DNA of 64,000 bases, from IMG/VR virus record IMGVR_UViG_3300021387_000075; one strand, given 5' to 3'. The position numbers and the translations under genes are program-made. The notes below the pieces were generated by a model. The model made no database searches and was not told the origin of the DNA. It worked only from the letters and a program-made list of their open reading frames with translations. This document shows, piece after piece, positions 3,487 to 64,000 of this stretch; the first letter of the stretch is position 1, and the number at the start of each line of letters is the position of its first letter. This stretch comes from a virus. Its lineage: Duplodnaviria; Caudoviricetes.

Positions 3487-5244
3487 TTAAATAACTTCTG
3501 TACTGTTGCCACAGTCTAGAATAACATATGTATCTGCCGTTTGTAATAAGCTACTAATATTTCCTGTTACCGCTATATGCGATAACTATAACTTTTTATT
3601 AATCTATTCTACTTCCTATTTTCCATTTCCAAGAGGTACTTGCGCGCCTTCGAGAACATTTAAATTTAAAGCCGCCTAATCTAATACTATTCTTACTTCC
3701 TTATTAGCGTTAGGCGCCCATTCAACGTTGTTTAAGAAAATAGCCTCAATTTTATTTTCATGCTCAGTATGAGGATCAGAAACAATATTTATTACCTTAT
3801 TTTCATCAGGAACAAGCTCTTCTCCGTCATACTTAATTTTTTCAATTTTATTAACTTGCGCTTCTGCTTGAATTCCTTCTAACTTCGCGCGCGAACTATC
3901 ATCAAATTCTTTTATCTATAAATCTACTGCACGATCTAAATTATTTACTGTAGCAGGAGGAACTTCATTACCATTCACTAGAATATGTTCAATAGAATTG
4001 CGTTGCGCTCCTTCTTCTATTTCATCAAGCTTTTGCTTTAATTCATCAGTAAAATCATTAGAGGTTAAAGATTTTCCTTCTACTTTATCTACTTTAGTAC
4101 TAAAAGTAGTATCTAATCCTGCAATTTTGCTCTGCTAAATTTCTGCTTCGGCATCAATATCTGCATCACGAATACTACCTTTAATAGCATAGCTGCCTTC
4201 GTCGCCTAGTAAGCGCCAATTGCTCCCAGTCCAAACATATTCTTTCTGTTCGGATAAAATTACATCTCCTGGCTACGCCTAAGAAAATAAATAACCACCA
4301 ATACGAGGATCAATACTGCTATTATTAGTAATTACAACACTTGCTTCGCCAATAAAATGCATTGCCCCAGTAATTCCAGAAGTTGCATTATCAACATACG
4401 CTTTAATTACTGAATTAGGAACTAAATAATTATTAGAAGCAATGCTGTCTGCAATAGGAATTAACCTAACCGCATCCGTACCATTACCAACTAAAACGCT
4501 ATCCTCTGTTAAGGATGAACGCCCTGTTCCACCCTAGCTCACTGCAGCAACGCCAGTTAAGTCTTCAAATGTTGGGCGAGCACGCTCTACACTAACCTAT
4601 CCATTCTCCTAGACAACGGCTGTAACAAACTAATGTTCTCGCGCGACATCTGCGTTCTAAATTAAACTTAATATATACTGTACTTGTACATATACACGAT
4701 TTAGTAAGGTAGGATAATCTTCTATATTATTGCGCCCAATCCAATTAACAACAGCAGTTAAGTCACTTAAATCAATATAATTACTAGTGTCTAAAATCCA
4801 AGGTGAATCTTCATTATTTTCTTTATAACGCAGATAATATTTATCTATATTTTCATCAGTACCCCGTGTAAGCTAATAAATTCGCGGCGCGATATTAACA
4901 TCCACATCGCCGCCAACTAAATTTTCTACGAAACTTTGTAGTCCTTCAATTTCCTACGCACTATATGATGGCTTATAGGATGCTTTCGCCCAATTATATA
5001 CATCTGCGGCGATTGCCTACACCCATGGTAATTCACTAAAATAGTGCGTACCATCACCTATTTTAATACCAATAGCAGGAGGCGTGTTTTCTGGCCTACC
5101 GTTAGAAAGAGTTTCTATAATACGATTGTTGGGGAAAGCGCATATAGCGGCTTCCCCTTGCATCAGAATAACATCACTATTCATCCACTAGCTATAAGTA
5201 CCATATCGTAGCTATATTTTAGTTTCTAGTATATGATCCGCCAT
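3487..5244 (-). CDS. Mtd_N-like tail/receptor-binding protein (585 aa, TAG-rich, absent from ORF track)
   Basis: RBS AGGAGGTG; MADHILETKI[Q]LRYGTYS[Q]W..GEAA..IKIGDG; length in frame to TAA. Confidence 0.65.
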
Positions 5245-15600: not shown

Positions 15601-18600
15601 AGATTTAATGTCGTAAATTGATTATTATTATAAGTAGCATTACTAGAGCCAATAATAAGTTTACGTAATTTATGCGTATTACTAAAGCTGTTACCTCTAA
15701 AGTATAGAGAAGCTAAGCTATTAGCATCAACAATCTTTCCATCTTCATCTTTAATGGGCTTACCTGCTAACTCTTGAATATAATCAGCACCATAAACGCG
15801 AATACGAGATTCATTCATGCTACTAAACGGACATTTAATTTCAATTGGCTTTCCGGCCTTGGCGCGATATGGTCCACGTGGGGTTTCTGCGTAGTCAACT
15901 CTAATATACATATCCTAATATGGAGTAATAGTTAAATCCCAATTTGGCATAACTTCTTGGTCGCCAATGGTATAACATACCATATCAAATTGATTATTAT
16001 CAGAAATAATTGGTAAGAAATACTTACTACCAAAATAAGCTGCCTGATTTTTAATCCATTGCCTGCGTTGGTATTTCTTACGACCCTACATCATATCGCC
16101 TAAGAAACGAGTTTCTTTACGAGTTAGGTCAATCTCTTGATATGGATTAGAATCTTTGATTCCCTTATCTCCAGTAAAAGGACGAATATACTTACGTTCT
16201 ACATCTAAACGCCAGATAGCTTCTGGATAGCAACTCTAGAATCTATCGAACTGAACAATAAGATTATTTGGATTAAAGCATTCAGTAGATACGCCTGTAA
16301 AAGCGGCAGTAATATCTGAATTACAATTTTCCCGTAAACGTGACCAGAAAATAGAACCTGCTCCATTAAATACTGGCCCAGATGTTGGATCATCATCTAC
16401 ACGATAATCTGTATCTTCTTTACCATATGGGAAAATTAATTCGCCATTATTATCAATACCCGCGGCGGTATCCATATCGTAAGCCCACATATCAAATGCA
16501 TACTGAGTATAGTAAGTTTTATTGGAATCAATTACAGTATCCTCAGTAGGTTTGAATTGACCTTCCCAAACGCCAGGTTCAGTCGTCTTTTCAGTTACTT
16601 CACCATCGGCTTCTTCATATATATGAAGTAAGTTAGCAGATGGGCGAGAAACAATTCTATGTTTTCCAGTCTGAGCAAAGTGCCAGAATGTATTTTTAGC
16701 ACGGTTATCTATCATTGTATAATAATGAGTGAAGGCATAGAAGTAAGCAACAGAGGATCTAACTGCCCATTGATCTAGTTCATTAACAAATTGTTCATTT
16801 GTACTAGTAACAAGCCAAGTATAGAACTCTTGCCATACTTTTGTATTAAGTGCTAATTGAGCTTTCGCTTTTCCGGTAGTATCATTAACAACTTTACCAT
16901 CACGATAATCACCTTTGCAAGCATAACGCATTTCAAAAGAGTGATTGCCGTCAAAGCCTTCATTCATTAATGACCAATAACGCATATTCTTTGGGTTACC
17001 ATTTTCATCTAAGGCTTCCCATTCTGTTTCCTTATTGATAGGATAGAGATAATCTGTAGTTTCAACGGTAATATCAGCTTCGCTAGAATTAGCAGTAAAG
17101 CTGCCTTCTACAATTTTACCATCATCCATATCCTATTCTAATGTATATGCCTCAATAGTACGTACACCATTCTTCATATAAACACCAGACTAGAACTAGG
17201 AGTTATTGGTATTATTATCAGAAATCTCTAGTGTAAATTCATTCATATCATCTGGATTATATGCACGGGTATAGTCACTCTTTTTAGAATCACCGATATT
17301 TCCTAGTGCATAGAAGTGCCATTCTTTATCATTAAATTCTGTATGGTTCGTATAATTTACTACAGTATAATCACCCATTGTAGTAGTTGTATGTTCATCA
17401 TCATTCTCGCGCACGAAAAGAATTGCAGGAACAAATTCCATATCATTCTTAATACGATTATCGCGTAAATATGCGGGAGAAAGGTAGGGTAAATAGTCAT
17501 TATAACGCTTCTAGAACAATGCATTATTAACATTTTCAGAAGAAGCAATATTAACTTTTAAGTTAAAGAAGTTATTTGGAATTGAAGTTGAAGTTAAAGA
17601 AATCTTTCCAGAATCGCCTTTCCAATTAGTGCAATATTCTGGCTCTTCTTGTTCTTCTGTTCCATAACCTTTAATAACATAAGACTGATATCCTTCAATA
17701 AATCCTTTTCCTGGTTTTATCTTATCGGAAGGATTATGCTCACCATCACAGTTGAATAAGAAGTCAACATTGCGACCGGCATTGCCATACTTATCAGAGG
17801 TAGTACCTTGGCCTGCGTGGTATCCATTACCAAAGAACCAGTTATCTTCCTTACCACGGCTCGGATAAATCGTGCCGCCTTCTGCATGAATACAACGTAG
17901 TGTAGAATATGGAATGAAGTCCTTCTTACTAGTTGTAAAATGCGGAGTATCTAGCATTAAGATTTTAACATCTGGTAATTTCTAAGCTAGACGAACTGGA
18001 TCAAGTGTAGTATCTGGTCCTTCATATGGAGTATAAACTTCAGCCTAAGTATCATAATAAATACAGTTACGATTGTATCTATCTATAGACTCATTTACAT
18101 CTTTACCATCTGCGATAAAGTTACGTAATACTTCTTCTGTAGTTAAGGAAGAATTATAAATACGTATTCTATAAATATACACATCGCAATCATCAGAGCC
18201 AATTACAATTGGCTTAGCATCAGTTTGATATAAAGCTTCAATGTTAGAATATGGATAAGCACGACTTGGGCACCCATCTTCATAAGACATGCAATAAACG
18301 CCGTTAGGTTCAGTTTCTTTATTAATATTAATATCTAATTCAATCTTATCTTCTTCAGAATATGGGAAATATAGGTAAGATTTAGTAGAATCACCAGCGG
18401 CATCTGTCTTTAACCAACCATTATGTACATTAAGCTGAATACCAACTTCTTTAGCGGAAGTACTATCACTTGTTTTACCCATGTTGGTAAACCAAACTGC
18501 ATCTGCTTTGCGTACTGCATCTGTTTTAAAGATGATTTTAAATTCGGTACCATCACGATAAACAACACTAGCGTCAGTAGTAGTTGTACCATCATCACTT

Positions 18601-21600
18601 GACTTGGTATATTTATTAAACATATAGTAGTTAAACATTGCCCTCGTACCGGCTTTTACTAAGAAGTAATCACCATTAATATCGGAGCCGTAACCGCCAT
18701 TATACCAGTCAAAGTTATCAGAAACAGTTAAATTATAATTATCGTTGCTCCATAAACGTTTTGCGGAAGTATTAGTAATACCGGTAGGATTAAAGTCTAG
18801 TACTAAATTAGCAGTCACGGGTGCGATATCTACATTTTGTAGTTCTGTAACTACTAATCTAATGTCGATATAGGATTCTTCACATTTAATTCTTAAAGTA
18901 TGATTACCTACTACATCGGCTCTATAACTCCATGTGCCAGTATTATTATTTGTTAATGTAATTTCATTAATAGAATTTTCAAAATCATCTACATAATAAG
19001 ATACGTTATAATTTCCATTACCACCTGCGATAGTATAAGGAATATCTATTGTACTATATTGTGTTAGAGTCTCTTGATTATTACGATAAGGAGAAGCAAG
19101 TATAATAGTACTGTCTCCTGCCGCCTACCAAATAATATCTCTAAAAATAGAAGCAGATTTAACCATACCGCTATTTGCAGTAAGATAAACTTCTAATTTA
19201 TGAGCACCTGGCTCAGATTGAGCGGGGACAGTATAAGTTTGCGTCGTATTTACTCTTGCCGCTAGGACAACAGTATCAATTTCCGTGCCATCTAATTTAA
19301 AATGTACTGTCTTTTCTACATTACCACTTGGAATGTAATTAAAACTTACTGTATTTCCAGTATTTACAATTGCATTATTTGTAAAATTAGAAGTAATAGA
19401 AAGATTAAATGTATTAATATTCCAAGTTGCCGGGGCAGTAATTGCTGCATTGGAATCTAATGCTACTGTAACTGTTGCAGTATGAGTACCAATTGTAGTA
19501 CAGTATTTAGTAATATCAATAGAATAGAATCCTAATGCCGCAGCCGCTTCAGTAGAAAGTTCTTCATTATTTTCATCAACTGGCCATGTATATGCTTTAT
19601 TTACGGGATCGCCACTAGTAATATTAATTGGAGCATCAAATATACTTACTCCATCTATTGTCAATGTATAACTAGCAGGTTCATTTGCTTCACCACTAGT
19701 AAAGAAGAAACGTAAATAAGTAGCTGTATTACTATTAGCAGCCTTATAAACATTACGAGAAGGCACTTGAATTACTTTTAATGCATTTGTAACCCCACCG
19801 CCGCCACCAGTTGCGGGTAATAAAATACGGCGTAGACGTTTATTGACAATATCATTTAAATTAGTATTATCATCAATAGTATTATCTTCATCATAGTTAA
19901 ATTCATAGATACTTAAATAATTGACAGTGCCGTCATCACTTTCTACAGATTCAATATCAATATTATATTTTTTAGATTCAGGAACGCCAATTTCAATTTC
20001 TGTATCCCCTATCCAACGATAATGATGATAACCATCAGATTCCAATACATAATAATCTGTATTTTCATCTTTTTCTTCTAATGCATTATAATCTTCTAAT
20101 GTTCCTACATAACCAGAAGTATTACCTTCGCCGCTTCCGCCACTAATTAAGTTCCATGAATTATTAATCCACTTATAATAAAAATACTTGCCATCTTCAT
20201 TCGGTCCAACTAAATAATCCTTGGCTTCATCACCAGTTTGCGGCAATTCAGCCACAATTTCAGTAGCGGACTTTGGTTCGGTTTCTAAATCATAAACGCG
20301 AGTTGCTAATGTCTTTGTGTCAGTTAATTTTGCACCGCCATCAATAGCATCCAAACGTTGATCTAAAGTTGTAATATCGCCTTCAGCTGTGTCTAAATCA
20401 GTTTCTAGTACGCTAATACGTTGCTTTAATCCGTTAGGTACTTCGTCATTTTCGCCCTAGACATGGTCGATAGCAGTTTCGATGTCATCAATACGGGTTT
20501 CAGCGCCGATCAAACGTCCATTTTCGTCTTGCCCCATTGCGATTTCTGTTGCAAGTGCAATTACATCAGATGTTAGATCATCAATCTTAGTATTTGTATC
20601 CTTAATATTATGAGTAACATCATCTACCATAGCAAGTTCATTAGCAATGGTATTAATATCAGTGCGTACTTGTGCCGCAGCTGTTTCAATACTATCAAGT
20701 CTATTATCTAATGTACCATAAATTGGATCGCCGCTTTCTTCATCAGTGCCGATTTGAGGACGAGCGTCCCCGACTTCGGTTTCAATCGCGGCTAATCTAT
20801 CATCTAAAGCACTATCTGCAGTCTTGTAAGCGTTGTCCATATCATCAATTAGACCTTTTAGAACTTTACCTTGACGTGCATCTAATACTTTATTATCAGT
20901 AACATCTTGTGCTGGCTCATAAGTTAAACTATTTTCAATATCATCTTTATCAACTTTATGATTAATATTAGTTTCATCAGCATTAAAACGGGCATTTAGA
21001 CTATCATAAGCACCACGACCAGCATTTATTTCAGAAATAACATTTGGTAAAGTACGAGAGGGAGCTGAACCGCCATCAATTGCATCAAAACGCGCATCTA
21101 GCGTACTATCAGGATTTAATCTTGCCTCAGTAATTTCTTGCTATATAGCAGTAATTGTAGTAGTCTCCAATGTATTAATTGCTGATTCAATCGCGGAAAA
21201 TCTTGCTGCTAGCGTATCAGGGCTAGCGCCCTCTTCTACTGCTCTATGAGCAGCATCCACTTCTTCTTTAAGAGCAACTAATTCTTGAATACGAGTTGAC
21301 ATGGAAATTTTTTGCCCTTCAGCATCCACGCCAGTAGCATTTAAAATTGTATCTAAGCTTGCACTTATGGTTGTTAATTGCTAATCAATCTAAGTCATAT
21401 GCTAAGACATATTTGTATTAGCAATACCAGTCACAGGATCTCTGCCTATTGTAGCCGCAGAAAACACTTGTTCATTCATGCTATTAACAAGGGTACTCAT
21501 ATTAGTTAGAACCTTGGAAACAGTATTCTCATTTGTATAAATATCCTTGTATGTTTTAGTTTCCGCATCATAAATTTGCCCAAGTGCCTTTCTTAAATTG

Positions 21601-21998
21601 TCAATAAGCGTTTCATCTGCTTGAAAACGCGTACTTAAATTTGCGTAAGGCGTAGGATCAGCTGCTGTAGTTGCGTTGGTAATCTATGTCATAGCATCAC
21701 GACCAAGAGAACTATCTTGACTAATTCCACTTAATTGCTATGCAATACGATCATCTACCTATTCCTAAGTAAGTTTAGAATTGGCATTACTCTAAACAGC
21801 AGTAACAGCCTACCAAAGAGCCTAATCCTGAAATCCTGACTCTGGACGAGTACCAATGTTTGCATCTAATGCCTTAATAGCTTCTCTATTGATTCCAATA
21901 TGTTCATCAATATGCTCCATCTTCGGCTAAGTAATAGGCTAACCTGGCGCCCAATTAGATCCTGTATAGGCTTGTTTTGCTTCATCACTTATTGCCAT
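12636..21998 (-). CDS. giant (~3120 aa) virion/tail protein with LamG-like, CotH-kinase-like and LRR-like regions
   Basis: Twelve ORF-track fragments lie in one frame; the gap checked (13085-13890) has only TAG stops; motifs IDNRAKN, YDMDT, IGSDDCDVYIYRIRIY; RBS AGGAGG. Confidence 0.8.
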
Positions 21999-46514: not shown

Positions 46515-47114
46515 TTAGGTTAATTCGGCCTGCTCTAGAATGGCTAAACTGTTTGGAAGTTTTTCTGCTAAATCCTGAACATCAATTTTTACCTTAAAAC
46601 GATCTTTGGAAATAAAATTTTTTAAGGTATATTTCTTTACTAAGTAGTTACGAGCAACACTTTCGAGAGAAGTAGCATCCACTTTGTGCGTGTCAATCGT
46701 GTAAAGAATTTTTCCATGATCAACTGACGGGTATTTATTAAGATGCTGTTTCATTCTCCGTTCTACATCAACCGAAGTTCCAATTTTGTCAAATACGTGC
46801 TTATTATCTTTATCATAAAAGCGCATGATATAAAAATAATCATGGTAATGTAAAATGTTTTCAATAGCTTCAACTACCTGTTGAGTAATCCGCTTAATAA
46901 ATTTAGCTGTATATCTTAATGCTTCTTTTACATATTCCCAAGTCTCACGAACAATAGGGAATTTGTCATAGATATCAAGCATGTGTTCAAACCGTGTTTT
47001 TCTGGTTTCAGTAGTTTCGGCTTCCATCATTTTGCCATACTGATAATTCATTTCTTCTTTTGCCTGTTCATCAGAAGAAATCCTATTCACGTTGAACCGT
47101 CCCCGCATTGCCAT
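46515..47114 (-). CDS. GIY-YIG/T5orf172-like protein
   Basis: FYIMRF..KIGTSVDVERRMKQH..LE. Confidence 0.7.
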   Translation of the reverse strand: MAMRGRFNVNRISSDEQAKEEMNYQYGKMMEAETTETRKTRFEHMLDIYDKFPIVRETWEYVKEALRYTAKFIKRITQQVVEAIENILHYHDYFYIMRFYDKDNKHVFDKIGTSVDVERRMKQHLNKYPSVDHGKILYTIDTHKVDATSLESVARNYLVKKYTLKNFISKDRFKVKIDVQDLAEKLPNSLAILEQAELT

Positions 47115-47303
47115 TGTCCTGTCCCTCTCTGGTTTGTAAGGTATCCTTCCTTTTCTTTCGTTCCCCTTGGAACAATATAATAATACCACTATATTATAAT
47201 CTTGTCAACCCCTTTTTTAGGATTTTTTCAAAAAAAATGCGCCGGCCCGTTAGCCGTGGGTAACAGAATGAAATAAAAAGACCGCCCGAAGGCGGTCAAG
47301 GGC

Positions 47304-48481: not shown

Positions 48482-49134
48482 TTAGCGGTCGCGCTCCGCA
48501 TAAGCGTCTAAGAAGGTTTGAACGTATGCTGATGCCTTATAACCGCTTTCCAATAACTCACAATAATGGTCGTCTTCACGCACAATGTTTTCTAACTCTT
48601 CACAAATGTCATCGAGCAAAGATCGCACCGCTTCGATCTTATCAAGTGCGCGGTTATCAATACGTATTGACTTTGAGACTTCTACCAGTGACATTTTTAT
48701 TTCTCCTTTCACATTACATCATACATTTTAAGAATACGCTCAACCTTCGGAACATCCTGCGCCCGACATGTTACCACAAAGCGGATAGTATCGGATTGCC
48801 GATTGATCTTGAAGTCTCCAACGCTACATCCGACCCGCTCGATAACCACGTTCATAATGTGGTGCCCTACCCGATTGCGAGGAACATAATAAATGCGTGT
48901 AACCATCATTCATCACTCCTTTTAGTGTCATTAATCCCATTCTCTTCCAATGTTTGAAGCGAGAAACCTGTTTTCATATTTGACATCAACAGAGAAGTTA
49001 TATCCACCTTCAGTAATAGCCTGCTGATGGCGCTTCTCTAAATCTGCTTTACTATCACAATAGTAAGCATGGCTTTTTTGATATTCATCATCAAATGGGT
49101 CATCAGTAACCCAATTTAGTTTATAGCGAGTCAT
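48482..49134 (-). other. three small co-transcribed genes (48482-48694, 48709-48909, 48931-49134)
   Basis: Each has an RBS; one cassette between GCCGGC at 48471 and 49377. Confidence 0.65.
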
Positions 49135-49386
49135 TCATCAAATTCCTTTCCCTTGTGTTTCGGTTTCTTAAACCGCTTGTCGGGGATAATGCGAGTGACG
49201 CAATACCCCTGTGGAAACTCTTTACGCTCGGACTGGAAGACTTCCACCCAAGTTTTCGGTTGCTGTTTCTTCGTGCGCTTACTCATCGTCTCACATCTCC
49301 TTTCGACATTGTTATTATAACAAATTGTGTGTTACAAGTCAATAGCCAAATTGTTACAATTCTGTTAAATTGGCGGGCCGGCACGG

Positions 49387-49623
49387 TTACTCCCGTGCCA
49401 TTACTTCCTCATAGTCAAGGCCTAACCATTCACACACAATTTCAAAGTCAAAGCGCATGAAGTCGTTAATCTCCTCAACGGACCACGGTTCATCGCCATT
49501 CCTGACTTCTTCCATCATGCTTTCAAGAACATCCAATTCCTCAGAGGTAAGCTTAGCGGCATTAGTTGCGGCCGCGCTCCAAAAGTCAAAGTCCCTCAGA
49601 CTCTTTTCAATCGTCATTGTCAT
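49387..49623 (-). CDS. acidic small protein
   Basis: FDFWSAA..LTSEELD..INDFMRF; RBS. Confidence 0.7.
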   Translation of the reverse strand: MTMTIEKSLRDFDFWSAAATNAAKLTSEELDVLESMMEEVRNGDEPWSVEEINDFMRFDFEIVCEWLGLDYEEVMARE

Positions 49624-49889
49624 GATACATACTTCCTTTCATTAATTCTCATCAAAGGCTATACCGAAACCGCCGAGAACAAGGCCAGGGACACAGCCCC
49701 AAAGCCATTGATTCCCCATAAAGAAACCGACCAGAAAGAAGAAACCAGTGAGGAACAACCCGAAACCGCAAGCAACCTTTTCCATAAGCTCCCCTCCTTT
49801 GATATATAAAGTATATCATAATTTTAAAAAAATGTCAAGCATAAAATTTGGGCCGGCCCGTGTTAGCCGAGACTAACAGAGGATCCGAA

Positions 49890-50123
49890 AAAAAGCCACC
49901 CATTCGGGTGGCGATGGGGATGGTCTTCACGAGATGAATCCCTGCCTCTTTCAGATCCCCGCAGGTGCTGCCTCGACATTTGAACCCTTTCGGATCCCAG
50001 TGCTCGCCACACTGTATACCGCACCATCTCGCTCTTTCGGCGTGCGGTTGGTTCATCGGGAATGGTCTTACTGACTCTCGTGGGTCTCACCCGCTTTGGG
50101 CTTTGCCTTCCCTCACCCTGTGC
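49890..50123 (-). ncRNA. candidate ~235-nt highly structured ncRNA
   Basis: TTGACA(50151-56)-N17-TATAAT(50128-33); several GAAA-capped stems; terminator at 49888-49912. Confidence 0.6.
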
Positions 50124-50177
50124 CTGTATTATATCACAGGCGGTCGGTCGTGTCAAGTACTTTTTGAAACTTTTTTT

Positions 50178-50290
50178 GAGGCTGAGCGCTCTCCGAAATA
50201 GCGGGCGCTCATTTGATGGTCTTATGCGGTCTACCTGTGACCTTGGCAGTCTCACTCTGGTTTCTCACAGCGAGCCTTCCGCCAACCTCG
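50178..50290 (-). ncRNA. candidate multibranch ncRNA (~110 nt)
   Basis: Consensus promoter 50296-50324; GAGGUUG/CAGCCUC closing stem and three arms. Confidence 0.55.
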
Positions 50291-50344
50291 GGGCTATTAT
50301 ATCACGGTCGGTCGTGCTTGTCAAGGGGTTTCCGAAACTTTTTT

Positions 50345-50455
50345 TCGGAGAGTGCGGTGGGGTTGAGGACATTCCGAGTCTCGCCATACTGTCTCGGAAC
50401 TTAGTTTTTTACATGGTCCCTCGGTCCACCGCTGGAAGGGTTTCCCCTCCTGACA
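50345..50455 (-). ncRNA. candidate long-hairpin ncRNA
   Basis: Own promoter; nested GCGGUGG/CCACCGC and UUCCGAG/CUCGGAA stems. Confidence 0.5.
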
Positions 50456-50568
50456 TGATTATAATACCACAAGAGGGGAGAAAAGTCAATTACGAAAGTC
50501 TAAACTAATTGTCATACTTTCGTAACATTTTCGGGCCGGCTCGGCCCACCCGATGGGTGGGCTTTTGC

Positions 50569-50853
50569 TTATTCTTCGGGCATGAATCCCGCATAATGGG
50601 CGACAACAATTTCATCATCATAGATCGATTCGGTTTCCATATCGTCCATCAGCAGAGCGCCAATGTCTCCAATGAACCAGTCTTCGATTCCTTCCATTAC
50701 CCACAGGTCTTGGTTACAATCTTCGAAGATAACCAGATCGTTTTCATAGTCCAGATCAGTAACTACGCCAACAGCGGGATACACATCAGCGCAGGCGCTT
50801 ACAGCAGTCAGCAGGGCAATCAGGGTCAGGGTCAGTGCAATCAGCTTCTTCAT
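50569..50853 (-). CDS. secreted acidic small protein, paralog 1
   Basis: Signal peptide; similar to 53665-53949. Confidence 0.75.
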   Translation of the reverse strand: MKKLIALTLTLIALLTAVSACADVYPAVGVVTDLDYENDLVIFEDCNQDLWVMEGIEDWFIGDIGALLMDDMETESIYDDEIVVAHYAGFMPEE

Positions 50854-50951
50854 TTCGGTTTACCTTCCTTTCTTTTCCCTCTTGGGATGGCTTCATTATA
50901 TCACAGCTTCGCTCAGCTGTCAAGCCCTTTTTTCGGGGCTGGCTGGGCTTT

Positions 50952-51395
50952 TTAGCCCAGCCGAGCCAGCGTCCGCTCGTTGGTGAGCTCAGCCCCATCG
51001 AGCTTGACCTGAATCTCAACCCCGTCCACCCGGATGTCGCCAGCTACCCAGAAGGGGACGCTGTCCTTGACCCAGGTCTCGGAGGTCCAGCGCTCGGTCA
51101 GCTCCCGCTCGAAGTTTTCGCCCTTGTTGTGGTCGGGGTCAGCGGTCAGCAGGTTCTCGGATCCCAGCAGCTCCGCCGTGGCGCTCAGCTCAGCACGGTC
51201 CTTGGCGGTCAGCTTGATCCGGATCTTGGCGAACCCGCCCCGCTTGGAGCTGGCCCGGTCCAGCTTGAAGAAACGGCTCAGCTCCTCAAAGCTCATACGC
51301 TGGGCGTAAAGGTTGCCGTTGGCTACAAAGCCCAGAGCGTAAGTGTGGGCGCCCGCCCGCTCGTTGTACTTGGTCATCATTTCGGTCATCGTCAT
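50952..51395 (-). CDS. PD-(D/E)xK/Mrr-like fold protein, paralog 1
   Basis: GENFE..GDI..IQVK. Confidence 0.6.
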   Translation of the reverse strand: MTMTEMMTKYNERAGAHTYALGFVANGNLYAQRMSFEELSRFFKLDRASSKRGGFAKIRIKLTAKDRAELSATAELLGSENLLTADPDHNKGENFERELTERWTSETWVKDSVPFWVAGDIRVDGVEIQVKLDGAELTNERTLARLG

Positions 51396-51689
51396 CGTGG
51401 TCAACCCCTTTCCTTTACTGTACCTGTATTTTACACCATAAAGCCGGAGTTGTCAACCCCTTTTTGAAAAAAAGTTATTACAATTTTCTTAACTAATTGC
51501 CCGCCGGCTGTAACAATTTGTTTAGACTTTTGTAACAATTTTCCTCTTGACAGCGCGCCTTCGGCGTGCTAAAATGTTAGTGGTGGAAGAGGGGCCTTTT
51601 ATATATACTTTAGTATGCTAAAGCGGTGCCCGGGCCGGTCCAGTTACTTTCGTGCTTTAGCGTGCTAAAGTGTGGCCGGGCCGGCAAGT

Positions 51690-51770
51690 TTGACTTTCTT
51701 TGACTTTCAGAAAAGATAGGCAGGTTCGCCGTGGGTCCCAGTCTTCTTTTGCCTCCCCTGATCTGATTAT
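51690..51770 (-). ncRNA. candidate ncRNA, paralog of 54590-54645
   Basis: Own promoter; shared GCAAAAGAAG-N4-GGACCNACGGC core. Confidence 0.45.
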
Positions 51771-51889
51771 ATTATAACAGACCCGGGTCGGGATGTCAAC
51801 CCCTTTTTGAAAAATTTTTTTTACTATTTTTAGGGCCGGTCGGATCCCTGCGCTGATCCCGTCTGCCGGATCGATCCGAGGGTAAAAAA

Positions 51890-51965
51890 AATAAGGCTGT
51901 TTTTTCTGGTGGGCCACCTCTTGCCTTTCGGCGCCCTTTAGGAGTTGCCTTATCTCTCCCACTGA
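51890..51965 (-). ncRNA. candidate ncRNA
   Basis: Own promoter; AUAAGGC/GCCUUAU closing stem, GCC-GAAA-GGC, U-tract. Confidence 0.45.
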
Positions 51966-52100
51966 TGATATGATATCATAAGTGGGTGAAAATGTCAACC
52001 CTTTTTTGAAAATTTTTTTCAAAAAAAAGTTTCGCCGGAGGGGTTGACAATTCCATATAAATGTGGTATATTATAGTCACAGAAAGGGAGGTGCTACCGA

Positions 52101-52529
52101 ATGAGGATTTGGTTCGACATGGACGGAACAATCGCTGATCTGTATGCGGTGAATGGATGGCTCGATGATATTATCGCCGAAAATACCCGCCCGTATGAGT
52201 GCGCTAAGGTGCTCCACAATATGGCTCATCTGGCGCGGTTGCTGAATAAAGCCCAGAAAAACGGTCACGAAATTGGGATCATCTCATGGACGGCGAAAAA
52301 CGGCAAGCCCGAATACAATCGGGCGGTTGAGATGGCAAAAAAGGCTTGGCTGAGAAAGCATCTTCCTTCTGTTCATTGGAATGAGATTAAGGTTGTCGAA
52401 TATGGTACCAATAAGTACAACGCCTGCGGTGGTGGTATCCTGTTTGACGATGAGGAGGAAAACCGTGAAACCTGGGGCAAGGGCGCTCATGAACCGAAAG
52501 AAATTATAGAAATTTTGAAAAAGATTTGA
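52101..52529 (+). CDS. HAD-family nucleotidase-like, paralog 2
   Basis: DMDGTIADLY..LFDD; similar to 45969-46406. Confidence 0.85.
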   Translation: MRIWFDMDGTIADLYAVNGWLDDIIAENTRPYECAKVLHNMAHLARLLNKAQKNGHEIGIISWTAKNGKPEYNRAVEMAKKAWLRKHLPSVHWNEIKVVEYGTNKYNACGGGILFDDEEENRETWGKGAHEPKEIIEILKKI

Positions 52530-52594
52530 AAAAGGGGTTGACACCCGGCGCAATCTGTGATACACTTATATCATCAAAGAGGGAGGTTAAGGCA

Positions 52595-52723
52595 ATGACT
52601 TACAAGGTGCGAGAGCTGGTAAATGGGCGGTTCGGGGTTTATGAGTGCTCTGAGTGGCGGGAGACTCTGGTAAAGACCTTCAAAACCCGTCAGAGTGCGG
52701 AAAAGTGGATCAGCAAGCGCTGA
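52595..52723 (+). CDS. 42-aa protein, paralog 1
   Basis: Promoter and RBS; MTYKVRELVNGRFGVY..KTFKTRQSAEKW. Confidence 0.7.
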   Translation: MTYKVRELVNGRFGVYECSEWRETLVKTFKTRQSAEKWISKR

Positions 52724-53520
52724 TCCACCCGCCGAAAACTTTTTTCAAAAAAGTTTGAAAAAAGGGTTGACAAATCCGGCAAAATGATATATACTTATAT
52801 CATCAAGAGGGGGAAACCCCAGAAAGGCGGTACCAAATGAAGTACGTTGAGAACACCATGGAAGCCCTGATTGAGAAGGCCCTGCGGGAGATGGAAGAGA
52901 AGGGCGAAAAGCTCCCCGAGATCCGGTACGACGAAGGGCGCTAAGCCCTTCGGCCGGATCGGGCCGGTTATATGATACAAAAATGCTGTTTTTTTGTTAG
53001 CCATGGCTAACAAGTACTCGCACTCTCCCCTGTCCCTCCCCTCGGTGCAATTGTATTATAGCATACCGGCCCGAGATTGTCAACACTTTTTTCAAAAAAA
53101 ATTAAGCCGTGATCCTTAGTGGATCACGGCCACCACGATTCCCGTGGTATCGGTTTCAAGGTGGATCACCTCATCCCAGAGGTCGCGCGCCTCGATCCAT
53201 CTAATGGCCTCGCGGATATCGGTTCCGATTACTTTATCGCTCTCATGCATTGCTTCTCGCTCCCTTCTTTTGATAGTTATATTATAGCATAAAGTTGAAA
53301 AAAGTCAAGACTTTTTTATAATGGAAAAAGCCCTTTTTCTTTTGATCCGGGACTTTAGCAAACTAAAGTATCGGACCGGGCCGGCTACATTAACGTTAAT
53401 GTAACTGGGATCCCGGGCATTAACGTTAATGTAAAAAAGTAAAATAAAATTGAAAAAAGGTGTTGACAGACCGGACGAAAGGTGATATACTTATATCATC
53501 AAAGAGAGGAGGACACCGAG

Positions 53521-56080: not shown

Positions 56081-56468
56081 CGACACCCCCGGGTCAGATT
56101 TCGAATACCAAATTGTACATGCCGGGGTGGGGTGGTCGGTCAAGTTTTTGAAAATGATGTACGATCTGGTATGGCGCCCGACGCAAACCAGAATTGACAT
56201 GCCCGCGCGCCTTATTTTTCAACGGTTCTGGGCCGCACCAGCGCAGCCCAGCGCTCAGCAGCCCAGGTCCCAGCAGCCGGGGGCCTAGCTTTCGGGAAAT
56301 TCTAGCTCGAGATGTACAATCTGGTGGGCGCGTCCTCATTTTCCACCGTAGCCCGGATTTTTGAACCTAGCCTAAATTTTCAAACAAACTAAAATTTCCC
56401 AAACTCAAACATTTGACAAACCCTAACCCCATATGTTAAAATAATAGCAAAGGAGGTGTTGAAATACA

Positions 56469-57761
56469 ATGAAAAAACCATATTCATTGGATTACACCAT
56501 CGAACGAGACACTGACCGCCTTCACCTTGTCGAAGGCATTTTAGACACATTGGAACACGACCCATCCGAAACCGACTTAGAACAAATGGCCACCTATATA
56601 TTGTATGGGAAGGATGAAGACGGGAATTCCTCCTTGCGTCGCGGCGAAGTTTATGACAACGCGAAACGTTACAACAGTTTCAAAACTTCGGACGACTATG
56701 TGATTTCGTTGGATGAGATATTAGAAAATCCTGCAACAGACGAACAGGAATTTAGAAGTGCGTATAAGCGCGATATTTATAAGAAGCAGGTACCGACCAT
56801 TTAGCGCCCCAAGTATGATAAGAAGACAGGCGAATTACTTGACCCGGGCGATTCCGACATACCAGGAATGGTGGAACTATGGGAGCGTCTAGACCATTTC
56901 GACAAATGGATTCATATCCTATAGGGTAAATTGCCGCCCGACCCCAACTTCCTAATGTTTGAAGATGACTATCGTCTTTACCGTCTCAAACATAACTTAA
57001 TTGATATGAAGAGAACCCAATACTACTTAAAAGATGCCTATAAGCCGCAAATACATTTCCAAAAGTTAGACCACCCCAAGCCGCAATTCTACGACTGGGA
57101 TGGCGCATCCGCTTACTGGCTTCCGTATAACAAATGGTAGTATCGTGTCACTCATTCCTATACCTCCAAAGTCTCCTCTAATATAGAAGACTATGAGACC
57201 CGTGGGGAAGGGGATTAGTTAGAGGTAAAATGGGTCATTTGTAACCACTAGTTTGACTGGGAAAATTATAAGCATATCTATTTTTTACTCCTAAACTATC
57301 TCCCCATTAAGGAATAGTTGAAGGAGAAATTAGATACCTACGGCCGCACTCTTATCTGGGACCTCGAACGCTACATCCAAATGACCCCATTAACACCCGT
57401 GCGCCGCGCCATTGTCGATAAAGTACTAATACAAATGCCGCGCGACCAAATATGCGAAGAACTTATGTAGGAGTTTGGCTTCACATATAATGCCTACTAC
57501 CTAAGCACCCTAATCGCCAACGACATTCCAAAGGAAATTGCGCGCGAAGCCCTTCGCAATCGCCTATTATGCGAGACTCCGAAAGAAGAACTAAAAATGT
57601 GTAAGGAATGCGGCAGGTTGCTACCCAAGCATCCCCTATTCTATACAAAGAATTCGGGCCGCAAAGATGGTTTCCAATCTCGCTGCCGCGAATGTGAGCG
57701 CAAGCGCCGTATTCAGCGTGGGGAGGTGAGAGATATAGATGGAAGACAGAAAACCTCGTAA
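56469..57761 (+). CDS. conserved phage protein with C-terminal Zn finger (430 aa, TAG=Gln)
   Basis: Translated continuously through TAGs to TAA; CKEC..CREC. Confidence 0.75.
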
Positions 57762-58680
57762 ATGCCTGCGCTGTAAGCAAGAAAAGCCAATTGAGGCATT
57801 CGCGCATACTCCATCTCGTTTCTTCCCAGCGCATCGCTCCCTTATTTGTACTGCGTGCTTAGAGGCAACTACGCCGCAAGATAATTTGGGAGAAGTTGAT
57901 AGGGTCCTCCGTTGGCTAGACCTACCATTCGACCTTAATAAATGGACGCAACTTTATGCCCAACATTAGGATAGGACATTTACCGCCTACTTCAATATGC
58001 TATATGACGACCATTATTCAGCCCTAACCTGGTAGGAGGAAAATGCGCGATGGGAGCTCGCGCGAAAAGAGGGCACCATTGATGATGAGATTAAGGCTAT
58101 TTCTGAAGCCCGTATGAAGTCCCTCAAAAAAGTATGGGGCCCAACCTATAAGCCCGCGGAGCTCCTATGGCTTGATAATTTCTATAATGAAATTGTTGCC
58201 ACTCAGAACGTCTCAACTCCCATTCTTTAGGAAAAGGCGCGAGACTTTTGCGAACTTCAATGGCATATTAAGTAGGGCCTGCGCGAAAATATGGATGTTT
58301 CTAAGATGATGAAATAGGCCGACGACATTGTAAAAACCTATCACTTTGAAGCCTCCAATGCCAAAAGCGCAGCTGACTTTGAGTCCGTTGGAGAACTTAT
58401 GGTCTATTATGGAAAGAAGGGATGGCATCCCAATTGGCACACCGAGCCGCAAGATTCTATTGACTTTATGATGGAAAATATCCAAAACTATCTATAGCGC
58501 CTAGTTCGTAACGAAGGCAATTTCGCCGAATAGGTTGAAGACAAGCGCGCAAAGTATAATATGACTGAACGTCTGGAAGAAATTGAAAACGAGAAAGTCG
58601 AATTCGATGAAACCGCAGACGTGGAGTATGAAGGTGATAGCGACCTTGCCGCAGAGCTATAGGGGGGATTAGATGAGTGA
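57739..58680 (+). CDS. Zn-finger protein, putative terminase small subunit (313 aa)
   Basis: CLRC..CTAC; overlaps the large terminase start; translated through TAGs to TGA. Confidence 0.65.
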
Positions 58681-60454
58681 AGAAGTCCTCTTGCGCGATG
58701 GCATACCAATTGAGAAGGGAGTTACACTTACTCGTACTTTTCTTGATAACAACTAGGAACTTATTACTAAGTATTTAAATCTTTGGATACTGTATCCAGA
58801 CCTTTTTCTGGATGTAATACAAGATTAGACGGATGCTAAGCATTTTCATTTAATGCCCTTTTAGCGCATTGAATTGCGCGCGGCTATGCGCTACAGATAC
58901 ACTTTCTGGACTGCTACGCGCGCGACCTCCAAATCTTTTACAGCCTATCTGAGCGCATTAGTAAGAGCAGTATTATTGCCCGGCTCCACAATCATGATTG
59001 CCTCTGATGTTAAGGGGACAGTTATTAAAATCGCAGAAGCCAAGTTTGAAGAGATATTCAGGCACTGGCCTCTTCTGCGCAAGGAGCTTAAAACGCGCGC
59101 AGATGACGGAAAAACTGGCGTTAAATCCAGCTCTAACTACTATGAAATTTTCTTAAAGAATGGTTCTATGATTTCTGTCGTCTCCAAAGACACAAGTCGT
59201 GGATTGCGCGCAACCTCTGCAATCCTAGAAGAAGCCGCGCTAATTGAAGAAGTAGCATTTAACGAAGTCCTATGGCCGCAAATGAACATTGCGCGCAGAG
59301 AAGTAGATGGAACCTTAAATCCAGATGAACCTTCTGCTTCCCAGGTCTTCATCACTACTGCCGCAGAGCGCACTGTATTTATGTATTAGAAGCTAATTGA
59401 AATTACTGTCAATGCTGTCTTGCGCCCGAAGGAATACTTCTCATGGGGTCTTTCCTATGAAGTCCCGTTACATTATGGGCTATTAGATAAAGCAACCTTA
59501 ATGGATTAGCGTTATTCTAATACCGTAAGTGAAGAATCATTTGCGCGCGAATCTCTATCAATATGGAGTGGTAATAATGAGGATGCTTGGCTTGACTCAC
59601 GTCGTCTAAATAAACATCGGTCGTTATTAAAATGTGAACGTCAAGCTTACTACAGTGACAATTGTCCAAATGCTTGGTACCTTATTGGTGTTGACGTTGG
59701 TCGTTATAGCGCGAATACCGCTATCATGGTAATTAAAGTCCTACCAAATGACTAGCGTTATAGAAAAAATGTAGTATATACCGAAGTTATAAATGGCGCC
59801 AACTACATTACAGATTAGGCGCCCCGTATCAAAAAACTTATTTAGTTATATAATCCTCGTGAGGTTGTCATTGACGGTAACGGCCCAGGTATTGGTCTTA
59901 TGGACGCAATGGCGGTTCCATCCTTTGATTCAAAAACTGGTGAATAGTTCCCAGCCTATTATACTTTTAATAATGAGAATCATTTGCCGCCAGAATTAAA
60001 GGTAGAGCAAGATGAGCCTGCGCCCGCTTATAATGCTATTCTTTATGATATTAAAGCTGGTTCTTCTAATGAAGACGCCATTCATGCGGCGTTCTTAACC
60101 GCGGTGAATACAGGTTCCGTTTCATTCCTCGCGCACGAACGCATCGTAAAGGACAAGTTAATGAAAACTAAAAAAGGACAAAAAATGACACCTTACGATA
60201 GACGAGTTTTCTTATTACCCTATGAAATGACTTCTCGTCTAATGGATGAACTTAATAATTTGCGCCTAAAGCCTACAGGGGTGGAAAATAAATATAAGGT
60301 GGAAAGAATTTCACGATCTATCGAAAAAGACCGTTTTAGCGCATTAGAATATTCTCTTTATAGAATTAAATATTATGAAGATAAAGAAATTTTTAAAAAA
60401 CGGAAGAAAAAGATAAATCAATATGCTTTCTTCAGTCCTAAAAGTAGGGGGTGA
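58673..60454 (+). CDS. terminase large subunit (593 aa, TAG=Gln)
   Basis: PF[Q]R, TRATSKS Walker A, ILEEA Walker B, IGVDVGR, IDGNG.G, KDRFSA. Confidence 0.92.
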
Positions 60455-60459
60455 GGTTT

Positions 60460-61989
60460 ATGAAATCTTCGTTTAAACCATATATTCAATTTGCTCAAAA
60501 TAATCGTGTTTTTTCTGTACCTATAGATAGCTATCGAATCGGTCGCTACGGTTCAAATGCGCGATCTAATTCAGTTGGAGATCACGATTTCTCGCTAGAA
60601 GAAATTGAAGATATAATTCGTTCTGGAGATTTAGATTCGTTGCGGTAGTTATCTCGCTATTATTATCGCACGAACAGTGAATATCGAGAGAATATCGATT
60701 ACCTAGCCACCTTACCTTTTTATGATACTATTGTCACCCCCGTGTTTGAAGAAGGCAAAGGTTCAAAGGCTTAGATTATAAAAGCATTTTACAATGCATG
60801 TGATTTTGTTGATGGACTAGATGTACGCAATACATTTATTCGCATTACAAAATCTTGGTTAATCAATGGAATGTATAATGGTATATTGCGCGAATTAGGC
60901 GATAAAAAATCCATTTAGGATTTGCCACTTGAGTATTGCCGCACGAGATTCAAGGATTATAATAATTTAAACATTCTTGAATTTAACGTAACCTATTTTG
61001 AACGCCGTTTTTCTGATGAAACTGAAAGAGCACGTATGCTTGCAACTTTTCCAGAAGTTGTTAAAAAAGCGTGGAAAAATTGGAAAGATAAGAAAACGCA
61101 GGATCCATGGGTTATGATTTCATCCGCCGACGGCGGCATTAACTTTTGTTTCGCAGACGATTAGACACCATTACTCATTGCGGCGATACCTCAATTACGT
61201 AAGCTGAAAGATGCAGTTAGCCGTGAAGAAAAGCGGGACGAAAATGAACTATACAAATTACTAATTCAACGCATGCCAATAGATAGCAATGGCGAATTAG
61301 TATTTGAGTTAGAAGAAGTTGAAAATATCCACGCAGGAGTAGCGCAAATGCTGCAAGATTTAGACACAGTAGATGTACTGACCACCTTTGGTGAAACGAC
61401 ATTGGAGAGTCTCCAGGACTCCTCTGCCGCGTCTTAGTCTGCCGATCGTATTGATAAATATGCTAAAAATGCTTGGAATGCTCTAGGAAGAGGCTCTATT
61501 CTATTTAATGCAGAGAACAGTTCGACTCTAGCATATAGTATTAAAAAGGATGAAAGTCTTATGAAAAGTTATTTGAATATGTATAGTACGTGGATAAGAT
61601 TTCAGATCAATCAGCGCTTTTCACGCACTGGGCTATCATTCGACTTTGAAATCTTACCCACTACTATGTTCAATATCAAAGACTATCAGAGCATGTACTT
61701 CTAGGGTGCACAGTATGGTTATTCCAAAATGAGAGCTGGTGTAGCCAGCGGTATTAAGCAATTAGCTTAGCTAAGCTTAATGAACTTTGAAAACGACTTC
61801 CTACATATGGCTGATAAGATGATTCCATTGCAATCAGCTTATACTACTCCTGGCGGTGGCGAAGGTTCCGGCGGAGCAGGTGGGAAGTAGAAAACATCAG
61901 TAACAGTGGGCAACAAAGGTGGCCGCCCTGAGTTACCTGATGAAGAAAAATCTGAGAAAACTCAGGCCAATATTGCGGCCATGGGTTAA
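60460..61989 (+). CDS. portal protein (509 aa)
   Basis: Position after terminase, size, LPLEYCR, C-terminal GGRP. Confidence 0.8.
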
Positions 61990-62000
61990 GGAGATTCATT

Positions 62001-63272
62001 ATGGATAAACAAATACCTATTTATTTTGATAGTGTTGTTATCGCTTCTCCTACGACGCCAATATCTAGCACAAATCCGGAGCTGGGCCGTCTCAAGGTCG
62101 GGGTTTTCACCAAATATGGCAACCGTAATGGCTCTTACATTACGGATGAGATTGCAGAACAATTAATTGCCAGTGCAACCACGGGAAATACCCCAGTTGT
62201 TGGATTTTTTGACCCAGAATCCAAAACCTGGGCTGGGCATACTGGCCCACTACTAGCTAGCGCTTATGGCTACGTAGAATCATTTGAGGGGTGGCAGCCT
62301 TTCAAAGATACAGATGGAATTGAGCGTGAATACGCCGTTTTCTCTGTAATATTATTTAACAAATATTTTAATGAAGCTAATTTGGTTGTTGGTTCGCATC
62401 AATCTATGGAATTGGATAGAGCATCTATTGAAGGCGATTGGGCGAACATTGGAGATGCTGAATACTTCGTTTATACAAAGGCGTCTATAATGGGGCTATG
62501 CATTATAGGCAACCATGAACCTTGTTTTTCCGTATCTACTTTCTTTTCTAACGAAGATAAAAATTATGCTTCATAGTATGAAAAGTTCTCTTCACTTTTA
62601 TCCGGCTTGAAGGAATTAGTCGAAGAGACGGAAAATAATAAAGAGGGAGGAGAACAACCTATGGATGAAAATTTTGAAAATAACCTAGGCACTCCCGCAG
62701 AAGAGCCTGTAACTGAACCAGTTGCAACTGAACCAGAACCTGTTTCTGCTATTGAACCAGAATTACCATTAGTAGATGATCCTGCGTTAGCAGAGCCAGT
62801 AGCTGAAGAACCTGCGGCTGAGCCGATTGATTTTGAAGCTCTTCAAAACTCTATTACGGAATTAACTAATGCTAATGCTGAGCTAACTGCTAATTACGAG
62901 AATGCTCAGAATCGGATCGCAGAGCTAGAGCAAGCACTCGCTGCTGCTACTGCCGCGACTGAAACCGCAAACAATCGCATTACTGAATTAGAAGGATCTA
63001 TTGCTCAGTATGAAGCTAACCAGGCCGCGATTGAAGAAGAGAAGAAAAATCAACTAATTGAAAAATATGAAAAAGTTATTGACGAGGAAGAAATTGCTAA
63101 AATTCGTGAGGAGGTTTCTAACTTCTCCTATAGCGAGCTAGAAAGCAAACTTGCCATTAGCTTTGCGAATAAACAAATGGCTGGCAGTGAAAATCATATC
63201 GAAGCTATTCCACTACCAGAACCACCCGTAAATCAATTTGCACTTCTCATGGAGAAGTACCGCAAGAATTAA
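62001..63272 (+). CDS. prohead protease-scaffold fusion (423 aa)
   Basis: NRNGSYI, QSMEL, GLCIIG..EPCF, then acidic coiled coil; single TAG at 62574. Confidence 0.75.
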
Positions 63273-63285
63273 GGAGGAAAACGTT

Positions 63286-63891
63286 ATGGCGATGAAAAGA
63301 TTCCCAATCACCAACCCAGTTGGCGATATGGTAGAAAAGTATCGTGATCCTGACGAAAAGCTATATGCCAGCCTCGAACTAAATCAGGTAGCTTTCCCAA
63401 AGACTGGTATGGTAGTTTCTCAGGTACCACTAGGCGCCGCATTTACCAAAAATGCTCCTTGTGAGAATGGTATGTGGCTAGTCGGGGACAAGGCTGCTGG
63501 TGCTCTAAATGCTCCTGCTGCTGCTACAGATTCCCCAATTGGTATTGTTTATACCACAGAAAAAGAATATGATATGATGCATTATGGTCTACAAAGGTTT
63601 GGCCGCAAGGTTGCTGGCGATTATCCTCGTCTAGGTCTATTTGGTCTAGGTGATACAGTCACCACAAATTGCCTACAGTATGATGATACCGAGTTTGCTA
63701 CTTTTGCTAAACTAGAGGAAGCTCTAGCTGATATTGCTACCACGCCTCTATATGTAAAGGTAGCTGCTGGATCTCCAGTTCCTCAGATTACCAAGACCAA
63801 GCCCGCTTCTGGCACATATGCCAAAGTTGTAAAATACTACACTATACCTAACGGCGGAAAAGGCGTTAAGTATCAGATTGTAAGTCTATAA
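63286..63891 (+). CDS. head decoration/structural protein
   Basis: RBS AGGAGG; between scaffold and capsid genes as in SPbeta-like head modules; ENGM motif. Confidence 0.65.
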   Translation: MAMKRFPITNPVGDMVEKYRDPDEKLYASLELNQVAFPKTGMVVSQVPLGAAFTKNAPCENGMWLVGDKAAGALNAPAAATDSPIGIVYTTEKEYDMMHYGLQRFGRKVAGDYPRLGLFGLGDTVTTNCLQYDDTEFATFAKLEEALADIATTPLYVKVAAGSPVPQITKTKPASGTYAKVVKYYTIPNGGKGVKYQIVSL

Positions 63892-63909
63892 TAAGGAGGT
63901 GCGAACGTT

Positions 63910-64000
63910 ATGGATAATCTACACATTTTAATGAACGGCGTATTTGGACGTAAAGTTCCTGCTGAGTTCGCAGCCGCCGATTATGATTATGAAGCTGCTC
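63910..64000 (+). CDS. probable major capsid protein, N-terminus
   Basis: RBS AGGAGGT; gene order only. Confidence 0.5.
   Translation, partial: MDNLHILMNGVFGRKVPAEFAAADYDYEAA

Follow-up and report, generated by a model that had tools for sequence, protein, structure and literature searches.

The window analysed here is a 64-kb stretch of viral DNA. Under the standard code it contains almost no long open reading frames (ORFs). Reading TAG as a sense codon raises the coverage by ORFs of at least 150 aa from 0.44 to 0.88, and opens an ORF of 3120 aa (12636-21998, minus strand). PHROG matches in the window include a large terminase subunit, a portal protein and a phage sigma factor. Given the gain in ORF coverage and these matches, the window belongs to a large phage in which TAG serves as a sense codon in the late genes. 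The late genes lie at 1-31000 on the minus strand and at 56400-64000 on the plus strand. The sigma factor gene (PHROG 5767; 56469-57761, plus strand), itself TAG-recoded, opens the rightward late block and is followed in order by a 313-aa ORF (57739-58680), the terminase gene and the portal gene. ARAGORN finds no tRNA or tmRNA gene in the window; thus, any suppressor tRNA must be encoded elsewhere in the genome.

The early region, at about 31-56 kb, consists of short cassettes that use the standard code. It is rich in promoters: 23 promoter-like sites are found between 48.5 and 53 kb, compared to 5.2 ± 2.3 in shuffled sequences. Several of the sigma-70 promoters at 48500-53000 match the consensus at 12 of 12 positions and carry a TG extension, with a short cassette after each. 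The gap at 51450-52100 holds the minimum of the cumulative GC skew, as well as repeated CUUUAGCA...CUAAAG palindromes and AAUUGUUACA repeats, and the strand of the genes changes from minus to plus at about 52 kb. This gap could be an origin or a control region. Near the RNA gene described below, Pfam assigns only an NT5C-like nucleotidase (52101-52529) and a T5orf172/GIY-YIG-like protein (46515-47189). A 150-aa protein (50952-51404, minus strand) has no Pfam match and is conserved at 52-87% identity across 13 related viral contigs. In about one third of the loci, a similar gene is found no more than 3 kb from the RNA, at no fixed distance.

The original prediction had proposed an RNA of about 235 nt with its own promoter and terminator at this locus, and both signals are indeed present. 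The RNA gene occupies 49888-50121 on the minus strand and spans about 232 nt, its limits being given by the promoter, the terminator and the alignment of relatives (the form found in the window is referred to as type A). The promoter (50128-50156, minus strand) is of the sigma-70 type, with TTGACA at 50156-50151, a 17-nt spacer and a TG-extended TATAAT at 50133-50128; it agrees with the consensus at all 12 of 12 positions, and its position predicts a transcript start at about 50121. At the other end, a sequence scan identified an intrinsic terminator (49888-49912, minus strand) in which GCCACCC, a GAAU loop and GGGUGGC form a stem spanning 49912-49895, with U7 after it. The gene downstream has a promoter of its own. 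Taken as they read in the sequence, these signals show an independent phage gene for a non-coding RNA of about 232 nt, whose promoter should suit an RNA polymerase of the host type.

The RNA is classed as non-coding because, of 23 close relatives, 11 have stops or frameshifts in the 73-aa cysteine-rich reading frame that overlaps it. A small protein gene can practically be dismissed: both this ORF (49835-50056, minus strand), with its CxxxC...CxxxxC spacing, and one of 130 aa (49863-50255, minus strand) do exist in the window, but there is no ribosome-binding site, the shorter ORF crosses the terminator and the longer one the promoter, insertions and deletions in the type-A alignment do not come in multiples of three, and substitutions in the helices are compensatory. 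When the window sequence is folded by itself, the result is no better than chance (z = -1.82, with 10 of 200 shuffles as good). The case for a structured RNA therefore rests on its relatives and not on folding energy.

Among the INPHARED phages, there is no DNA match, whether near or distant. The neighbouring 150-aa protein led to 13 loci in IMG/VR, six of which carry a similar RNA. Comparison of these revealed an invariant 23-nt motif, GACCCAYGWGAGUCNGUAAGMCC, which occurs once in the window against an expectation of 0.00. A scan for this motif identified 15 viral loci, nine contigs in metagenome bins of Clostridia and their relatives and, in metagenomes, more than 120 loci among the matches listed, which amount to about 118 distinct members after duplicates are removed. 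A covariance model of the core (R1, from helix P0 to helix P3) finds a single copy in the window (50013-50125, 88.6 bits, E = 2e-23) and, among the relatives listed, 101 matches in 100 sources. In 79 of the 118 distinct members listed, a near-consensus promoter ends 39-66 nt before the invariant motif, most commonly 41 nt, and 77 of these 79 promoters have the TG extension. From this spacing, the folded RNA would begin within a few bases of the transcript start.

The fold of type A was derived from an alignment of 23 distinct sequences (A1), in which position 1 of the RNA corresponds to window base 50122. From the 5' end, the comparison of these sequences shows a predicted order of P0, a kink-turn signature, a three-way junction containing P1 and P2, and then P3, P4, P5 and P6, with two pseudoknots that would lock the fold. 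P0 (within 50049-50118, minus strand) pairs positions 5-8 with 71-74 (50118-50115 with 50052-49), and its pair 7/72 changes from GC to UA. Next to it, in the same interval, GA (50114-50113) faces GAUGA (50057-50053) in the internal loop G9-A10 opposite G66-A67-U68-G69-A70; together with P0, this element surrounds P1. The arrangement fits a kink-turn signature in sequence: the C-stem, P1, ends with an invariant G11-C65 pair, the bulge is G66-A67-U68, the tandem G.A pairs would be made by G69-A70 and G9-A10, all four of which are invariant in the 23 relatives, and the NC-stem, P0, has one covarying pair. The GA/NNUGA pattern is kept in about 55-60 of 96 family members. We take the local GGUGAGGG...CCCGAUGAA to resemble the SAM-I kink-turn.

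The three-way-junction module (50058-50112, minus strand), supported by covariation, is made up of P1, a CAAAG strand, P2 and an invariant strand. P1 pairs positions 11-17 (GGGAAGG) with 58-65 (CCAUUCCC), and four of its pairs are changed on both sides, for example from GGGAA/UUCCC to GCGCG/CGCGC. P2 (positions 22-25 with 31-34, GCCC with GGGU) covaries across the whole family, where it appears as GCCC/GGGU, UCCC/GGGA, CCUG/CAGG and GCGUG/CACGU. The invariant strand, GNGACCCAYGNGAGUCNGUAAGACC (positions 35-57), contains a small hairpin of two pairs closed on GNGA, with a GAGA, GUGA or GCGA loop of the GNRA type. Two likenesses of the junction were considered and set aside. As a mimic of the sarcin-ricin loop it fails because the GNGA loop may have A, U or C as its second base; the resemblance to loop E of 5S rRNA is one of sequence only, and covariation favours P2 over the GGGU/ACCC hairpin. 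An antisense role was rejected as well, the reverse complements of the invariant strand and of the AAAUGUCGAGGCAGCA junction having no second site in the window.

Downstream of the junction are four hairpins, all on the minus strand. P3 (50019-50047) pairs CCGCAC at positions 76-81 with GUGCGG at 99-104 around a 17-nt loop; it is 100% paired in A1, and in the wider family 61 members have AU and 22 have GC at its pair 183/247. P4 (49998-50014) pairs CAGUG at 109-113 with CACUG at 121-125, is likewise 100% paired, and has double changes in three of its five pairs. P5 (49982-49997) pairs GGAUCC at 126-131 with GGGUUC at 136-141 across a GAAA loop and is supported by covariation, including AU versus GC at 163/179 and insertions that preserve pairing; its length and loop vary among relatives. 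P6 (49941-49965) pairs CCUGC at 158-162 with GCAGG at 178-182, is invariant and 100% paired, and supplies from its loop the 5' strand of the first pseudoknot. A competing GCAG/CUGC hairpin that RNAalifold proposes in place of P6 is broken in three sequences with no compensation.

Pseudoknot 1 (49916-49960, minus strand) joins the P6 loop to the 3' tail by pairing GGGGAU (49960-49955; positions 163-168) with AUCCCC (49921-49916; positions 202-207). Five of its six pairs are double-changed, and the variants include GGGGAU/AUCCCC, AGGGGA/UCCCCU, GAGAGG/CCUCUC, GGGAGA/UCUCCC and AAGGGA/UCCCUU. Pseudoknot 2 (49930-50031, minus strand) joins CGAGAUG in the P3 loop (50031-50025; positions 92-98) to CAUCUCG (49936-49930; positions 187-193). 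It is 100% paired in A1 and three of its pairs are double-changed; one relative, L134, has CUUGAUG/CAUCAAG, and in another, L005, a G-C pair becomes U-G. In the other types of the family, the P3 loop is again complementary to its own 3' domain with different letters: UCCUAC/GUAGGA, UCAUGC/GCAUGA, UCAUAC/GUAUGA, GUCCUG/CAGGAC, GUAGG/CCUAC and GCCACGU/GCGUGGC. Pseudoknot 2 is therefore a trait of the family. A simple shuffle across all types gives only a weak signal for it (7.1 versus 6.1 complementary bases), so that its support comes from the set of differing complementary pairs rather than from the shuffle statistic.

The predicted pairs were evaluated against controls. In A1, 96.3% of cells fall in standard pairs and 18 of 50 pairs are double-changed, and none of 500 shuffles matches the observed paired fraction, double-change counts or covariation score. 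When the 3' partners are slid by 1-3 columns, 34-48% of cells are paired and 1-5 pairs are double-changed. RNAalifold, run blind, recovered P0-P5 and pseudoknot 1 independently. It should be noted that P3 and P6 never vary in A1 and are thus neutral as evidence there. For the core, an alignment of 96 distinct sequences shows double changes in 19 of 21 pairs; this alignment was fitted to the model and so leans towards it, and one made with MAFFT only gives 16 of 23.

Most of the helices drawn in the original prediction are found in this fold. Its ACCGCAC/GUGCGGU (P3), CAGUG/CACUG (P4) and GGAUCC-GAAA-GGGUUC (P5) arms are kept in the 23 relatives, the last two with compensatory changes, and its CCUGC/GCAGG arm corresponds to P6, which is retained as an invariant helix that carries no covariation information. 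Where three GAAA loops had been proposed, the one in P5 is a tetraloop, replaced in relatives by GUAA, UGAG or longer stems, and the other two GAAA sequences lie in larger conserved loops.

The long-range GAUGAA/UUCAUC helix that had been drawn around all of the arms does not stand, and a fold enclosed by it now appears very improbable. Its strands can pair in the window and in the majority of type-A relatives (97.4% of cells paired), but the helix shows no covariation and its only departures, three unpaired cells, break it. Both strands have other assignments: GAUGA, which is also conserved in types B and C where there is no UUCAUC, matches the bulged strand of the kink-turn, while CAUCUCG pairs with the P3 loop with compensation in L005 and L134, the change in L005 sitting where the enclosing helix would break. 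Accordingly, what the original prediction observed is partly confirmed, its interpretation is supported, and its topology alone needs correction.

The RNA had also been described as a complex fold of no recognizable class, such as tRNA or tmRNA, and this description agrees with our searches. Among the 4227 models of Rfam 15, no family reaches its gathering score anywhere in the window, and at E<=10 nothing overlaps the RNA within 49300-51000. In 26 related loci, only tRNAs reach the gathering score and no weak match recurs on the RNA; ARAGORN likewise returns nothing for it. Full-text literature searching, with one 2026 preprint outside its scope, found no description of the family. The two checks proposed with the original prediction, for a known Rfam family and for covariation, were thus both run: no family matches and no frame is conserved, and the covariation of a multi-helix, doubly pseudoknotted structure is strong.

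A transcriptional riboswitch is unlikely on the sequence evidence: no gene under its control is seen, and from one relative to another the terminator sequences differ while no competing helix is conserved. In the window, the terminator comes directly after pseudoknot 1, and a separate promoter serves the next gene. The RNA does share conserved junction nucleotides, variable helices and tandem or duplicated modules with the SAM-I and c-di-GMP-II riboswitches, which combine a kink-turn and a pseudoknot. Unlike them, it is free-standing and terminator-ended, and lacks an expression platform or a regulated downstream gene.

The family has a modular design. At least three different types of 3' domain are found downstream of the common core, and the module made of P1, P2 and the invariant strand also occurs alone, as a tandem pair or immediately ahead of small ORFs. 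In this last position, as a 5' leader, the module alone is seen at 2296-2395 (minus strand) in L001, at 2153-2570 (plus strand) in L142, and at 3136-3553 and 3835-4252 (minus strand) in L054; both L054 and L128 have two tandem copies of it. Two of the larger phages have an RNA of type A and one of type B in tandem, and the loop of each copy, judged by eye, fits its own 3' domain and not that of its neighbour. Some relatives have no terminator, and their RNA runs into the next cassette. In many relatives, an extra conserved module, CCUCUGAAACGNACUUCUGAAGAAARCGUCCCUCAAG, lies between the body of the RNA and the terminator (L001 3556-3600, L011 11350-11400, L004 11520-11560 and others); it is absent from the window. 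Its GUCCCUC could pair with GAGGGA of P1, or with the P3 loop in the L004 type.

At the same locus, close relatives of the window phage have a type-A RNA, one of another type or none, which gives the RNA the character of an accessory gene. Two promoter units devoid of ORFs lie immediately upstream of it on the minus strand, at 50160-50290 and 50326-50458, with promoters at 50324-50296 and 50489-50461, respectively. Both units fold better than shuffled sequences (z = -3.3 and -3.6). They were considered as paralogs of the RNA and rejected, since the core model does not match them and none of the fetched loci contains a relative of either; a likeness of 'unit 2' to the junction strand was seen by eye alone, and there too the core model gives no match. 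In one related locus, L104, the promoter that belongs to the upstream 'unit 3' in the window drives the type-A RNA, which suggests that cassettes are swapped.

Five related phage genomes of 97-177 kb (G001-G005, loci L158-L191) each contain 1-2 copies of the RNA. They have in common a giant protein of 3000-5000 aa and carry 1-20 tRNAs, including one with a CUA anticodon in G003. TAG recoding is found in four of the five; G004, which carries the RNA too, appears to use the standard code, and this speaks against a tie between the RNA and recoding. A tie to tRNA arrays is not consistent across the five genomes either: the RNA directly adjoins a tRNA gene in G005 only and is more than 65 kb from any tRNA in three. 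Among the other loci, an odd tRNA-like sequence follows the RNA in L023 (1136-1291; Rfam tRNA at 29.7 bits, not called by ARAGORN) and is itself followed by tRNA-Lys, and in L106 a tRNA-Glu comes after the RNA. In the loci compared, no family of neighbouring proteins stays at a fixed position relative to the RNA. These comparisons of genomic context identify the RNA as a free-standing accessory gene, tied neither to recoding nor to tRNA arrays. The family, as judged from its sequence matches, is shown to sit in phages of about 95-180 kb from rumen and gut samples, a rumen origin being presumed from the sample numbers in the contig names. The hosts are probably Clostridia, as indicated by metagenome bins and by the style of promoters and ribosome-binding sites only.

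What the RNA does can be addressed from its architecture and setting. The best explanation overall, which we hold with about even confidence, is an independent non-coding RNA gene of an uncatalogued family, for which we propose a role in trans. A more specific mechanism, a trans-acting folded RNA that binds a conserved factor or ligand in early infection, is put forward tentatively. Abundant expression would come early in infection, and the folded RNA would act in trans, its invariant junction serving as the binding surface for one conserved partner, which might be a small ligand or a protein of the host or the phage. Its role might be that of a decoy, a sponge or a scaffold for a ribonucleoprotein that aids host takeover or blunts defence, and, where some phage mRNAs begin with the junction module, those transcripts would recruit this partner as well. 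Binding of one conserved partner fits best because the junction is invariant amid variable helices, the early promoter is strong, the location is accessory and no protein is linked to the RNA. That location is the early region, which is made up of small cassettes and densely supplied with promoters.

For the kink-turn, a host homologue of the L7Ae family is a possible partner. No L7Ae-type gene (PF01248) is found in the five related phage genomes, and the Bacillus subtilis control does match. Among known phage RNAs, the RNA anti-CRISPRs and pseudo-ToxI decoys bind a host defence protein and mimic the repeat units of a host system. Like the present RNA, they are small, have their own promoters and lie in accessory regions; here, in contrast, no repeat mimicry or target was found. 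It is less likely, and still speculative, that the invariant junction is an aptamer or catalytic pocket, which would make the RNA a phage 'sponge' or a new ribozyme class built on a portable module of about 70 nt.

Among the competing explanations, the one that survives best, rather unlikely as it is, is a cis-acting 5' element in which the promoter-flush junction module acts on its own transcript. It might, like the HK022 put RNAs, modify RNA polymerase so that terminators further downstream are read through, or form a nuclease-resistant, cap-like 5' structure against 5'-to-3' decay by RNase J. In most members, a fixed distance of about 41 nt separates the end of the -10 from the invariant motif; in L001 (minus strand), L054 and L142, small ORFs are preceded by the module alone; relatives with no terminator abut the next cassette; and the short cassettes of the region form a chain in which each has palindromes resembling terminators. 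Indeed, the promoter-flush module and its copies in mRNA leaders would fit a cis-acting 5' element as well as they fit a binding site. The module also follows directly on a phage early promoter and is of a size similar to the put RNAs (about 60-90 nt). However, put is made of two simple stem-loops, where the present RNA has a three-way junction and a large 3' domain; the copy in the window is closed by a strong terminator and followed by a separate promoter for the next gene. Action in cis also leaves unexplained about 140 nt of further conserved, covarying structure with two pseudoknots and swappable 3' domains, and there are only 1-2 copies per genome for dozens of promoters.

A new class of ribozyme, self-cleaving or otherwise catalytic, with an active site formed by the invariant junction strand and the double pseudoknot, is improbable. 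Self-cleaving ribozymes are common in phages, and invariant junction nucleotides and a double pseudoknot are typical of ribozymes; the compact, doubly pseudoknotted architecture, with its invariant junction of about 23 nt and variable peripheral helices, would be in keeping with this. Nevertheless, none of the known self-cleaving families (hammerhead, twister, twister-sister, pistol, hatchet, HDV-like, glmS and hairpin) gives an Rfam match, the sequence bears no mark of a cleavage site, and the junction module works as a unit apart from the rest of the RNA. A hammerhead-like CCGAUGA was examined and discarded, as it is not conserved (GUUGA, CAUGA and AAAGAC are found in its place) and is accounted for by the kink-turn.

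Quite improbable, too, is a self-assembling architectural RNA such as ROOL, GOLLD or the phi29 pRNA, in which the loop-to-tail pairings would be made between molecules to form an oligomer. ROOL (RF03087) and GOLLD (RF01998) are large ornate RNAs of roughly 580-800 nt from phages and prophages of Firmicutes, and ROOL is known from rumen samples (PMC12286853). The present RNA resembles them in being phage-borne and intricate, with pseudoknots, support from covariation and no linked protein, and its relatives appear to come from rumen samples, as ROOL does. It differs in being far smaller (about 230 nt), in matching neither model, in having an invariant junction motif of its own and in not being consistently adjacent to tRNA genes. 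With the phi29 pRNA (RF00044), it shares a phage origin, a strong promoter of its own, a three-way junction and loops that are free for pairing. The pRNA model does not match, however, and the phage is not of the phi29 kind, being a large TAG-sense phage with a terminase and a portal, of which the window alone covers 64 kb. The two loop-to-strand pairings could in principle form in trans, and two of the larger phages do carry tandem copies of types A and B, but the pairings look intramolecular, each tandem copy being suited to itself.

Taken together, the comparisons define a well-supported class of RNA that is in no catalogue. Its distinct members number more than 100, and it is marked by a kink-turn signature, a three-way junction with a 23-nt invariant strand and two covarying pseudoknots. 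Judged by sequence, the RNA is new by family, fold and modular design, a claim that rests on the absence of any family match, and by its broad kind it joins the orphan structured RNAs of phages such as ROOL and GOLLD. Its design is unusual in that swappable 3' domains are attached to a single portable core module, and its place is the accessory early region of large, mostly TAG-recoded phages of the gut and rumen. Functions in anti-defence and host takeover tend to cluster in regions of this kind. As the RNA is small and sharply bounded, it is directly testable. If its core is an aptamer, a ribozyme or a specific handle for a protein, it would be a new RNA tool in the biology of phages and their hosts. 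If the junction is an aptamer or catalytic pocket, these phages would be using a module of about 70 nt alone, in tandem, on the 5' ends of mRNAs or fused to interchangeable 3' domains; and if the RNA is a sponge, it would be the first RNA-based phage 'sponge', for a host immune signal or a conserved host factor.
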